Assembly: GCA_000165345.1 (NCBI GenBank)
Contig: CM000435.1
Location: 1,152,001-1,216,000, forward strand
Direction of reading: 5' to 3'
DNA: 64,000 bases
Shown here: piece by piece, positions 35,322 to 38,300 of the stretch
Numbering within the stretch: the first letter of the stretch is position 1
Layout of the letters: every line of letters starts with the position of its first letter
Program-made: the position numbers and the translations under genes
Notes under the pieces: model-generated
Told to the model about the DNA's origin: nothing
Databases searched by the model: none
What the model saw: the letters and a program-made list of their open reading frames with translations, nothing else

Positions 35322-38300
35322 TTATTCGCTTTCTTCATTAATTATCATATTTTTCAAAATCTGTCTTAAATCCAATTTCTTTGTTGTAGATTTTCTATAT
35401 TTGCTTCTCTCCATCTCTTTCTTTTCTGATAATAATTTTATACTATTTTCTACCCTTTTCTTTTCTCTTTCAATTTCTTCCTTAAGTCCAACTATGACTT
35501 TCTTTCCTAATGAAAATTTATCTTGTTCTAATCCCTTTATATTCATTTCCTTTTCCTTATTAATTTTCTCGCCAATCATTTTCAAATCTGCAATATATTT
35601 TTTTTGTAAATTTAAATATTCATTTTCTATCTGAGCTCTGCTTGCTTCTACTTTTAATGTAAGATCTTTCCTTTTTTGAGAAAAAACATTAATCTTTTCA
35701 TTCCACATATTTTCAATACGGGTTTTAATTAAAATGAAGTAAGCTTCCAGCTTCTTCTGACACTTTTCGTAAAGTCCTTTACTAGTTGTCTCTAACTTGG
35801 TCAGTGCATTCTCAAGTTGTTTATTTTCCTCTAATTTAAGCTTTGAAATACAAAGATCAGAAGGTAACGAAGAATAATTTTGATTCTGGTTAATATTATC
35901 ACGGTGATCTTTTTCTTTAGATTTACAAATAAAATTGTAATTATTTACTGTCATATTATCATCAAAGTTGGTATCAGGGCTAAAAATAGAATCAGAGATT
36001 GACATTTTACCAATAGAATTGAGGGATTTTAAAGAAAAATCAGAAAATCCTCTTTTTTTTGGCTTTCTCATTATTTCATCAAGTATCTCAGTCCCTGTTA
36101 TAGATGAATAATTATCAAAATAGTCTCCAGAATTAATAGAGCCAAATTCACCTTTAGTTTCAGTTTCTGTAATTTGCTCAAATATTTTATTAATTCCAGA
36201 GAAGATTACAGATTTAGTTTCTTCCAAATCATATTTTTCTGAAATATCTTCATCCATTTCTGAAGACTTGTTTTCATTTAAGCAATAAACATTTTCGGAT
36301 ACTTCTTTTATTTTTGATTTCGACTTTTGTTTCACTTTTTTCTTTTTCTTGTTTAATCCAATATTAATAACTGTTGGAGTTTTTTCATCATTTTCATTAG
36401 ATTCTTGTAAACTATCACGAGTATCCCCATTAATTTCTGATATCCACATATTTAATAGCTTGTCTGACCTGGAATCAGATGAATATTTTCTCTTCTTTAT
36501 TTCAATTTCCTCAGTTTCCTTTAATTCATCAAAACTTCCTAGAATTGGATATTCATTGTCAACAACTGCAATTTCTATGGGAACTATTGATTTAGTTTCT
36601 TCTATCTCTATATCTTTTTTGTTATTATTTATCTTTTTCACTTCATTTTCCTGCTTTTGTTTATCTTGATCTTGATCCTGTTCTTCTTCTGTTTCTTTCA
36701 TCCTTGTTGGGCAAGTAGTTTCATTTTCTATTGTAATTATACTCTCTTTAAGAGATTTAGGAGGCTCTGATCTTTTTGTTATTGGAGTAAATACCTCACT
36801 ATTCTCTTTTTTATTTACTTTTTTTGAAAGATCTTTCTTTTCCTTGAAATTAGCATTTTTTTCACAATCGTTCTTACCAAAAACTATGTCTCTTAATGTA
36901 TCATAACTAACTCTTTCGTAAACTATATCCATCTTTAGTTCATTACTTTCTTTATTGAATCTCCCTCTCTTTAACCCAGATGCTCTCTTATTTGTCTGGT
37001 CCAATGTTGAGATTGGAAAGGCAACTTTCTTTACCTCCTTTTCATCATGATCATCCATAAGACTATTGCAAACCTTTTTATTATTTTCTTCTAACTGTCC
37101 TTCATTAACATTTGAATTAAATTCAATTTCCCCATTTTTTTTCTTTTCTAAATTCACTTCTTGACCTTTTTTTTCAGTTTCTATCTTTTCCTTTTTTCTT
37201 TTAAGCTCTTCCTCTTCTTTCTTTTTCTTATTTTCCTCCTCTTTTTCCTTCTTTCTCTTATTCTCCTCTTCTTTTTCCTTCTTACTCTTTAGCTCTTCTT
37301 TCTTTTTCTTATTCTCCTCTTTTTCCTTTTTTTTCTTAATATCCTCTTCATTCTTTTTTTTGAGTTCCTCTTCCTTTTCTTCTTTTCTTCTGATTTCCTC
37401 TTCTTTCTTCCTTTTAATTTCTTCTTCCTTTTCTTTCTTAATCTTAAGTTCTTCTTCTTTCTTTTTTTTATTTTCCTCCTCTTCTTTTTTTCTTTTTATT
37501 TCCCCTTCCTTTTCTTTCTTACTCTTAAGTTCTTCTTCTTCTTTCTTTTTCTTATTTTCCTCTTCCTTTTCCTTCTTTCTCTTAAACTCTTCCTCTTCCT
37601 TCTTTCTCTTAATCTCCTCTTCCTTTTCCTTCTTTTTTTTAAGTTCCTCTTCTTTTTCTTTCTTTCTTTTAAGTTCCTCTTCTTTATTCCTTTTAATTTC
37701 TTCTTCCTTTTCTTTCTTCTTAATCTCTTCTTCTTTTTCCCTCTTACTATTTAGCTCTTGATCATCATTTTCCTTTCTTTTCAATAAATCCTCTTCTTTC
37801 TCAATTTCTTTTCCTTTAATCTCCTTCTTTTTCCCTCTTTTAAGATTAGCTGGATTCTTAACAGAAGAATTTAATACTTTGTCGTCTCTTTTCTGTTGCT
37901 GATAATTATCAAATTTGTCTATATTTACATCCGTTTCAATCTCTCTGTTGGTTGCTTCTGCATTTTTACATTCGAATTCAAGTAACTCTTTTCTATTTTC
38001 TTCTACTCTGCCTCCTTCAGCCTTCAAATTTCCTAGTTCAGGCTTCTTTTTGCTTCCTTCTATCTCATTGTTATTCAAGCTCTTACCCCTTAATCTTGAT
38101 TTATTATTCTTAGAAGTTTTATTTGGATTACTTTTCTTGCTTTTGACTTTATTTCTTTCATCTTTTTCTGAGTCTATCTCAACATCTTCTCTTCCTTCCA
38201 ATGCTATATTCATATTTGGTAATTTTCCTGGAATTAAAGAATCCAATCCTCTACTTTTATCTAATAATACTTCATTTGAAATATTTCTAGTATCTTCTTT

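Follow-up and report, generated by a model that had tools for sequence, protein, structure and literature searches.

The window considered here, a 64,000-nucleotide stretch of DNA (assembly GCA_000165345.1, contig CM000435.1, positions 1,152,001 to 1,216,000 of the forward strand), contains a gene for a 1624-residue Cryptosporidium parvum protein that includes an array of short, in-frame repeats rich in glutamate and lysine (E/K-rich). The findings presented below indicate that this array is probably the product of an old and by now degenerate tandem amplification within a linker of the protein, that it is specific to the C. parvum lineage and that it encodes a charged segment of the single alpha-helix (SAH) type, rather than corresponding to a currently unstable variable-number tandem repeat (VNTR). 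All positions given are those of the window.

Extent, Unit and Period of the Repeat Array

The array-bearing gene (35322..40196, minus strand) appears in the list of open reading frames (ORFs) of the window as a complete, intronless coding sequence of 1624 codons, counted from the first ATG, plus a stop codon, in exact agreement with the NCBI gene calls on CP141124.1. A first-pass annotation of this DNA had described an in-frame tandem array encoding about 230 residues of E/K-rich sequence in this region, and such an array was indeed confirmed on the minus strand of this ORF. As delineated by a custom score based on charges at positions i+3 and i+4 (see below), the E/K-rich segment presenting an SAH-type charge pattern spans 37098..37814 (minus strand; residues 795-1033), corresponding to about 239 residues. 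Across residues 806-1021 (37134..37781), where Glu, Lys and Arg together make up at least 70% of the sequence, 83 Lys, 79 Glu, 12 Arg and 3 Asp are found among 216 residues, such that the combined Glu, Lys and Arg content is 81% and the net charge is near zero (79 Glu and 3 Asp vs. 83 Lys and 12 Arg). The periodic core of the array (37185..37739, minus strand; residues 820-1004) comprises about 20 units of 8-10 residues that can be written as E(K/E)EE-[I/L/N/F]-K(K/R)KK. Because the array is in frame inside a gene whose flanks are conserved across species, it is taken to be coding.

Tandem Repeats Finder (TRF) reported overlapping arrays over 37186..37745, with periods of 27/30 and 54/57 nt, 64-78% matches, 5-19% indels and a best score of 297; by this measure, no other tandem repeat of the 64-kb window comes near the E/K array in size. 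Autocorrelation of the protein sequence, assessed relative to shuffled sequences, peaked at lags of 8-10, 17-19, 27-29 and 36-37 residues (z up to 7.3), while autocorrelation of the DNA, assessed relative to codon shuffles, peaked at 24-30, 54-57 and 81 nt (z 5-8.6). All three approaches thus point to a unit of 9-10 residues (27-30 nt), together with a double unit of 18-19 residues (54-57 nt). The period of 45-48 nt previously assigned to the array proved to be wrong, with the DNA autocorrelation dipping at 45 nt (z -4.2) and giving no signal at 48 nt (z 0.6). As for the motifs quoted together with that period, the DNA motif is present, while the peptide exists in near form only (KEKEEEIKRKKEEEEF).

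When read on the plus strand, the array core (37185-37739) is 91% pyrimidine and includes pure pyrimidine runs of up to 29 nt, generating the strongest GC and AT skew of the window. A plus-strand ORF at 37360..37761, the predicted product of which is rich in Ser, Phe and Leu, was discounted as a mirror artefact produced by this polypyrimidine strand.

Charge Pattern of the Encoded Segment

SAH character was scored using a custom surrogate, as opposed to a dedicated predictor, in which like charges at i+4 were subtracted from opposite charges at i+4 and the i+3 position was included at half weight, with windows of 42 residues scoring at least 0.3 being considered SAH-like. The array core obtained a score of 0.61, falling between the values for positive reference patterns (1.25 for (E4K4)n and 1.07 for (AEEEKKK)n) and negative ones (-1.0 for (E2K2)n and -0.5 for (EK)n), although closer to the former. 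Residues 795-1033 represent the sole continuous high-scoring segment of the C. parvum protein, and no SAH-like segment was detected by this score in the other long ORFs of the window.

Opposite charges are found at i+4 at 110 of 182 positions of the core, with acid-to-base pairs accounting for 53 and base-to-acid pairs for 57, as compared to approximately 33 expected of each (z +5.9 and +7.1, respectively). By contrast, like charges at i+4 are depleted, with 21 being observed vs. 66 expected (z -7.7). Fully 97% of the charged residues of the core have an opposite partner at a distance of 3 or 4 residues in either direction. Since residues four apart carry opposite charges, residue identity at a lag of 4 is likewise depleted (z -7.2). 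Hydrophobic residues make up only 9% of the core, and even in the best register, heptad a/d positions are occupied by such residues in 15% of cases, such that no heptad seam exists. The single non-charged spacer residue found in each unit (Ile, Leu, Phe or Asn) recurs every 8-10 residues and is scattered around a helical wheel.

These properties are those of a known class of structure. SAH domains contain up to 80% Glu, Lys and Arg, prefer Glu over Asp, favor Lys in alveolates and serve as connectors in long proteins (PMC5812594). Of the species surveyed in the same study, SAH domains are most common in Plasmodium, with Plasmodium falciparum presenting the highest SAH content (PMC5812594). Moreover, blocky opposite charges, such as those of the E4K4 and AEEEKKK designs, favor helix over coil (PMC5812594; PMC5347031). 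As such, the ER/K single alpha-helix assignment offered in the first-pass annotation as one of two options is well supported by sequence statistics, namely, composition, the i/i+4 charge pattern and the lack of a heptad seam, with the helix itself being predicted. At 0.15 nm per residue, a helix of this sort would correspond to a rod of approximately 28 nm for the core and approximately 36 nm for the whole segment.

Orthologs and Origin of the Array

A HMMER scan of the N-terminal 780 residues against 1.84 billion representative proteins returned four 50%-identity representatives, all from Cryptosporidium, namely, C. parvum itself and proteins from C. felis (1422 residues; 59% identity), C. 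ryanae (1416 residues; 57% identity) and C. andersoni (1583 residues; 44% identity). The family is therefore restricted to this genus at the sequence level. When the N-terminal 790 residues were used in a word-indexed search, no match was obtained, even to the protein itself, although an exact-sequence look-up located the protein in the same collection; this null result from the index is accordingly no sign of orphan status.

Alignment of the four orthologs revealed a strongly conserved N-terminal module (38364..40196, minus strand; residues 1-611), containing short conserved motifs up to the sequence GLINEQKKLTQ, followed by a variable linker (36975..38363, minus strand; residues 612-1074) that cannot be aligned among species and which ends at an invariant LKRGR motif (36960..36974, minus strand; residues 1075-1079). 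The linker, in which the E/K array is found, is 463 residues long in C. parvum, as compared to 252 in C. felis, 262 in C. ryanae and 346 in C. andersoni, with the latter three thus being 117-211 residues shorter. Neither the E/K array nor any other SAH-like segment was detected in the C. felis, C. ryanae or C. andersoni orthologs. Instead, their linkers are of generic low complexity, being E/K/S-, N/K- or K/N/S-rich, with those of C. ryanae and C. andersoni being N/K- and S-rich. Relative to C. felis and C. ryanae, the extra linker length in C. parvum is approximately 200 residues, which is the size of the array. Given the absence of the array from the orthologs and an excess of length equal to that of the array, an insertion or expansion on the C. 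parvum branch after the split from C. felis is indicated.

The between-species comparison covers C. felis, C. ryanae and C. andersoni, with C. hominis lying outside its scope. Exact look-ups of five neighboring proteins (503, 176, 121, 450 and 556 residues), used in seeking the locus in close species, returned C. parvum contigs only. The closest gene with a product that is probably the same in all species encodes ribosomal protein S20 (about 20425..20808); lying more than 10 kb from the array, it is out of flank range. The earlier suggestion that the array could evolve fast holds between species, given its absence from the three congeners.

Divergence of the Repeat Units

The longest exact internal repeat of the array is 32 nt in length, and only two 31-mers are repeated. 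This exact repeat is contained within a 115-nt block present in two copies at an offset of 279 nt and sharing 85% identity, the first at 37621..37735 (minus strand; exact repeat at 37687..37718) and the second at 37342..37456 (minus strand; exact repeat at 37408..37439). Glu and Lys codons are mixed across the array (51 GAA and 22 GAG; 40 AAG and 35 AAA), and synonymous codon identity among units in register is near random (z -1.5 to +2.5 at lags of 8-38 codons), being highest at an offset of 93 codons (z 2.8), a value that reflects the duplicated 115-nt block. The low identity of the units, together with near-randomized synonymous sites, argues that the array is old. As judged from these patterns, the array appears to have grown through duplication of units, double units and a block, with the amino acid pattern being kept while silent sites diverged. 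Retention of that pattern in the face of near-randomized synonymous sites suggests constraint on the arrangement of charges.

This same evidence bears on the possibility that the array is a neutral low-complexity expansion, i.e., a disordered polyampholyte linker of no defined structure or specific role that arose by slippage or unequal exchange of purine-rich GAA, AAG and AAA codons in an AT-rich genome, and which would then be akin to charged low-complexity inserts known from other proteins of apicomplexans. Speaking for this view are a linker that cannot be aligned, that varies between 252 and 463 residues among species and which in the orthologs is filled with N-, S- or E/K-rich low-complexity sequence, the absence of the array from three congeners and a genome of approximately 30% GC. 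On the other hand, blocky E4/K4 charges with strong i+4 complementarity and avoidance of like charges are helix-favoring (PMC5812594; PMC5347031), and the amino acid pattern has outlived the similarity of the silent sites. Purely neutral expansion is accordingly a realistic explanation but the less probable one. Still, neutral origin and helical conformation are not fully exclusive, and both can be true.

It may also be considered that the charged repeat offers an electrostatic surface for binding microtubules or nucleic acids and is thus not merely a spacer, a role that would be compatible with an SAH fold. KKEE/KKEI(V) repeats of MAP1B bind microtubules, and the units of the array hold KKEE[E][I/L] strings that resemble these repeats; the microtubule-binding helix of MAP7 offers a further precedent. 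Likewise, the INCENP SAH domain is reported to bind microtubules (PMC4571873) and the KER single helix of CAF-1 to bind DNA (PMC10335832). However, the net charge of the segment is near zero and the array is missing from orthologs that retain all of the conserved modules, such that a binding surface would seem quite unlikely.

Array Length Among C. parvum Sequences

No difference in the array exists among five C. parvum accessions of the protein (EAK90470.1, QOY40840.1, WKS79206.1, WRK33697.1, and KAL5367834.1). Four of these share one identical full sequence, while the fifth (KAL5367834.1, from GCA_048859185.1) differs only by one Glu codon lying outside the array. The latter difference maps to a run of GAA codons (36681..36689, minus strand; residues 1170-1172, in the context KETEEEQ), where either 3 or 2 Glu residues are encoded and which represents the sole length polymorphism seen in the gene, be it in C. 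parvum assemblies or in contigs built from short reads (L003, L005, L006, L018, and L023). The complete assemblies behind the accessions were generated by differing technologies (Sanger, PacBio and Nanopore), and the identity of the array across them argues against collapse during assembly.

Short-read contigs from the Logan collection were sampled through exact matches to neighboring proteins, indexed in approximately 40-50 blocks, mostly of short-read runs, with up to 24 contigs being examined per look-up. In the 14 contigs compared that reach the array, no indels were found in the visible flanks of the array. The visible parts of the array contain only two single-nucleotide polymorphisms, both situated just 5' of the periodic core, namely, G>C at 37760 in L014 (ERR14760746) and C>T at 37772 in L019/L024 (DRR729207). 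Taking the accessions and visible contig flanks as far as they reach, array length was accordingly invariant among isolates.

All of the Logan contigs retrieved end within the array, almost invariably at 37437 or 37687-37689, with those entering from the 5' side of the gene ending at 37687-37689 and most of those entering from the 3' side ending at 37437. Each of these break points falls at one copy of the 32-nt exact repeat (37408..37439 or 37687..37718). As Logan contigs are drawn from a k=31 assembly graph, breaks at a duplicated 32-mer are to be expected and so offer no evidence of polymorphism. The idea that the breaks reveal variation in length was rejected for this reason.

In light of these results, it is very unlikely that the array is a hypervariable VNTR, differing in copy number among isolates, usable for multilocus VNTR analysis (MLVA) and possibly collapsed in reference assemblies. 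To be sure, no larger tandem repeat is found in the window, the break that every Logan contig suffers inside the array hides the middle of the array in those samples, and a 115-nt block repeated with 85% identity at a distance of 279 nt could support unequal exchange. Nonetheless, the units are degenerate, matching at 64-78% with no exact repeat longer than 32 nt; the array is unchanged in five accessions, with the single one-codon difference lying elsewhere in the gene; the contig breaks at 37437 and 37687-37689 are explained by the duplicated repeat; and the visible flanks lack indels in all 14 contigs that reach the array. Moreover, the seven loci validated for MLVA of C. parvum do not include this one, and neither of the two chromosome 8 MLVA primers tested matches the window. 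The earlier view of the array as being variable in copy number and a plausible typing marker is therefore not supported by the C. parvum sequences at hand.

A perfect (TCC) microsatellite of 10.7 copies was noted at 3386-3417, inside a coatomer-like WD40 gene (3257..6718, minus strand). As a candidate length-polymorphic marker, this run is much more plausible than is the E/K array.

Protein Architecture

Within the N-terminal module, residues 1-316 are predicted to form ARM/HEAT-like helical repeats and residues 324-465 a beta-rich domain that includes a terminal helix. AlphaFold modeling of the N-terminal 500 residues gave a pLDDT (predicted local distance difference test) score of 39.7 for the sequence alone and 49.1 with the four-sequence alignment, and was confident for residues 1-110 only. 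On the C-terminal side of the LKRGR motif, the four-species alignment contains several short conserved motifs and then a conserved helical, coiled-coil-like region (35325..35873, minus strand; residues about 1442-1624), for which matches to coiled coils in Pfam and the PDB were weak and non-specific. The E/K array is thus located between the conserved N-terminal module and the C-terminal motifs and coiled-coil-like region, as a connector would be.

A helical repeat and beta domain at the N-terminus, a long linker and a C-terminal coiled coil are also the architecture of the SYCP2/Red1-type meiotic axis core, which was considered solely for this reason; neither the ARM-like and SLD domains of SYCP2 nor the SYCP2/3 coiled coil showed detectable similarity to the protein. 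Its assignment as a divergent scaffold of the chromosome axis or cytoskeleton is accordingly speculative, with tests for such identity having found nothing.

In one source, the protein is named "putative coiled coil-containing protein," a description that likely reflects C-terminal residues 1442-1624 rather than the E/K array. Folding of the array itself into a canonical coiled coil, whether dimeric or trimeric, as this name might hint and as predictors, which often flag E/K-rich helices (PMC8203680; PMC4571873), might propose, is extremely improbable, given a hydrophobic content of 9%, a/d occupancy of no more than 15% in any register, a spacer scattered on the helical wheel, a period of 9-10 rather than 7 residues and a better candidate at the C-terminus, such that the long coiled-coil spacer suggested in the first-pass annotation finds no support.

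Proposed Origin and Role

It is proposed that a unit of 27-30 nt was amplified in frame inside the poorly conserved linker of this Cryptosporidium-restricted protein of 1624 residues, with subsequent copying having occurred as double units of 54-57 nt and, with an offset of 279 nt, as a single block. The array would have originated in the ancestors of C. parvum, once these had diverged from C. felis. The approximately 190-240 residues of E4-x-K4-type sequence so generated most likely adopt the fold of a charged single alpha-helix of the ER/K or SAH type, predicted to be stabilized by Glu/Lys salt bridges between positions i and i+4. The resulting semi-rigid rod of approximately 28-36 nm would serve to lengthen and stiffen the link between the N-terminal helical-repeat and beta module and the C-terminal coiled-coil-like region.

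Several points weigh against this proposal. Sampling of array length is thin, with few independent complete assemblies standing behind the five protein accessions, several of these assemblies being presumably derived from IOWA. In addition, the short-read contigs leave 250 nt in the middle of the array (37438..37686) uncovered. The array is, moreover, dispensable in three congeners with ordinary low-complexity linkers, from which it follows that a specific rigid-spacer function is not needed for the core role of the protein and that the array could be selectively neutral. The SAH assignment is based on a custom surrogate score rather than on structure prediction or a dedicated SAH predictor, and the charge pattern may have simply been inherited from the amplified unit, without selection. 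Finally, Lys to Glu pairs account for about half of the pairs at i+4, and such pairs stabilize a helix less than do Glu to Lys pairs (PMC5812594).

A stronger version of the proposal holds that a flexible, disordered linker was turned into a rod of approximately 30 nm in the C. parvum lineage by amplification of E4-x-K4 sequence, and that the reach from the N-terminal to the C-terminal part of the protein was thereby changed adaptively. We consider this to be unlikely. Were it true, few natural quadruplet-type ER/K helices would match the segment in regularity, and setting the protein beside its C. felis or C. ryanae ortholog would provide a natural experiment in linker mechanics.

Gene Annotation and Neighborhood

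The window is approximately 30% GC and contains long, intronless and tightly packed ORFs encoding eukaryotic housekeeping products, with V-ATPase A, a coatomer WD40 subunit, ubiquilin, a protein kinase, eIF2-alpha, eIF3h and an SSRP1-like protein being among them. Exact protein look-ups placed the counterpart of the window at about 1.19-1.26 Mb on C. parvum chromosome 8 CP141124.1 (GCA_035232765.1). The 1624-residue protein corresponds to EAK90470.1, QOY40840.1 (CPATCC_003743), WKS79206.1 and WRK33697.1, where it is named only as "hypothetical protein," while KAL5367834.1, the source of the coiled-coil name, is a 1623-residue variant. A Pfam search with the full protein identified no domain and a PDB sequence search no match, and no published data on the gene, nor its cgd8 identifier, were found in the literature when searched by accession and by the cgd8 gene identifier prefix.

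As concerns adjacent genes, the downstream neighbor (33576-35087, plus strand; 503 residues) presents a sub-threshold match to the VASt lipid-transfer domain across residues 312-487 (E 4.5e-4). The upstream neighbor (40636-41675, minus strand) is annotated as encoding 302 residues over 1040 bp and is thus presumably spliced; prokaryote-style gene calls on short-read contigs instead yield a product of 258 residues. This neighbor presents a signal peptide-like N-terminus and no Pfam domain. Farther away, an annotated gene of 71 residues spread across 1309 bp (29848-31156, minus strand) is a doubtful model, since the sole single-intron GT..AG model giving 71 residues would encode an implausible low-complexity peptide.

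Significance and Comparison With Known Systems

The practical value of these findings is limited, in that the locus can no longer be counted among plausible markers for typing C. parvum. In addition, the duplicated 32-mer accounts for the constant pair of points at which short-read assemblies of the gene break. The array nevertheless offers a clean example of a charged segment of the single-helix type born by tandem amplification in a disordered linker of a genus-restricted protein. Should the helix be confirmed, the segment would serve as a convenient natural model for ER/K helices, and the parvum-clade protein would be mechanically distinct from its orthologs. The segment is an ordinary charged linker, and its pattern is unusually regular for an element of a kind that is itself known and common.

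Lineage-specific low-complexity inserts occur in the proteins of AT-rich apicomplexans. The array is like these in being a purine-rich codon repeat that is found in a non-conserved linker and in one lineage only, yet differs in that its charges are ordered, blocky and helix-predicting, as opposed to forming a homopolymer-like or random tract. With the MAP1B KKEE/KKEI(V) repeats, the array shares reiterated KKEE(I/L)-like strings but differs in terms of unit length and context, there being resemblance only and no homology. Like the loci validated for MLVA of C. parvum (among them cgd8_4440_NC_506 and cgd8_4840_6355/MM19; PMC9043402), the array is a TRF-detectable tandem repeat in a coding region of chromosome 8; unlike them, its units are degenerate and copy number does not vary in the available sequences.

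The closest likeness is to ER/K SAH domains, such as the lever extensions of myosin X and myosin VI, INCENP and the designed (E4K4)n and (AEEEKKK)n peptides, with which the array shares a Glu, Lys and Arg content of approximately 80%, the use of Glu as the acidic residue, a preference for Lys, opposite charges at i+4, the lack of a hydrophobic seam and a position between modules of a long protein. The array differs from these in containing an extra Ile, Leu, Asn or Phe residue in each unit and in its length of approximately 190-240 residues, with helicity and a monomeric state being properties that are predicted only. It is also unusually regular. In natural SAH domains, quadruplet E4[K/R]4 patterns are extremely rare and are not repeated (PMC5812594), whereas in the C. 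parvum protein, an E4-x-K4 nonamer or decamer recurs approximately 20 times.

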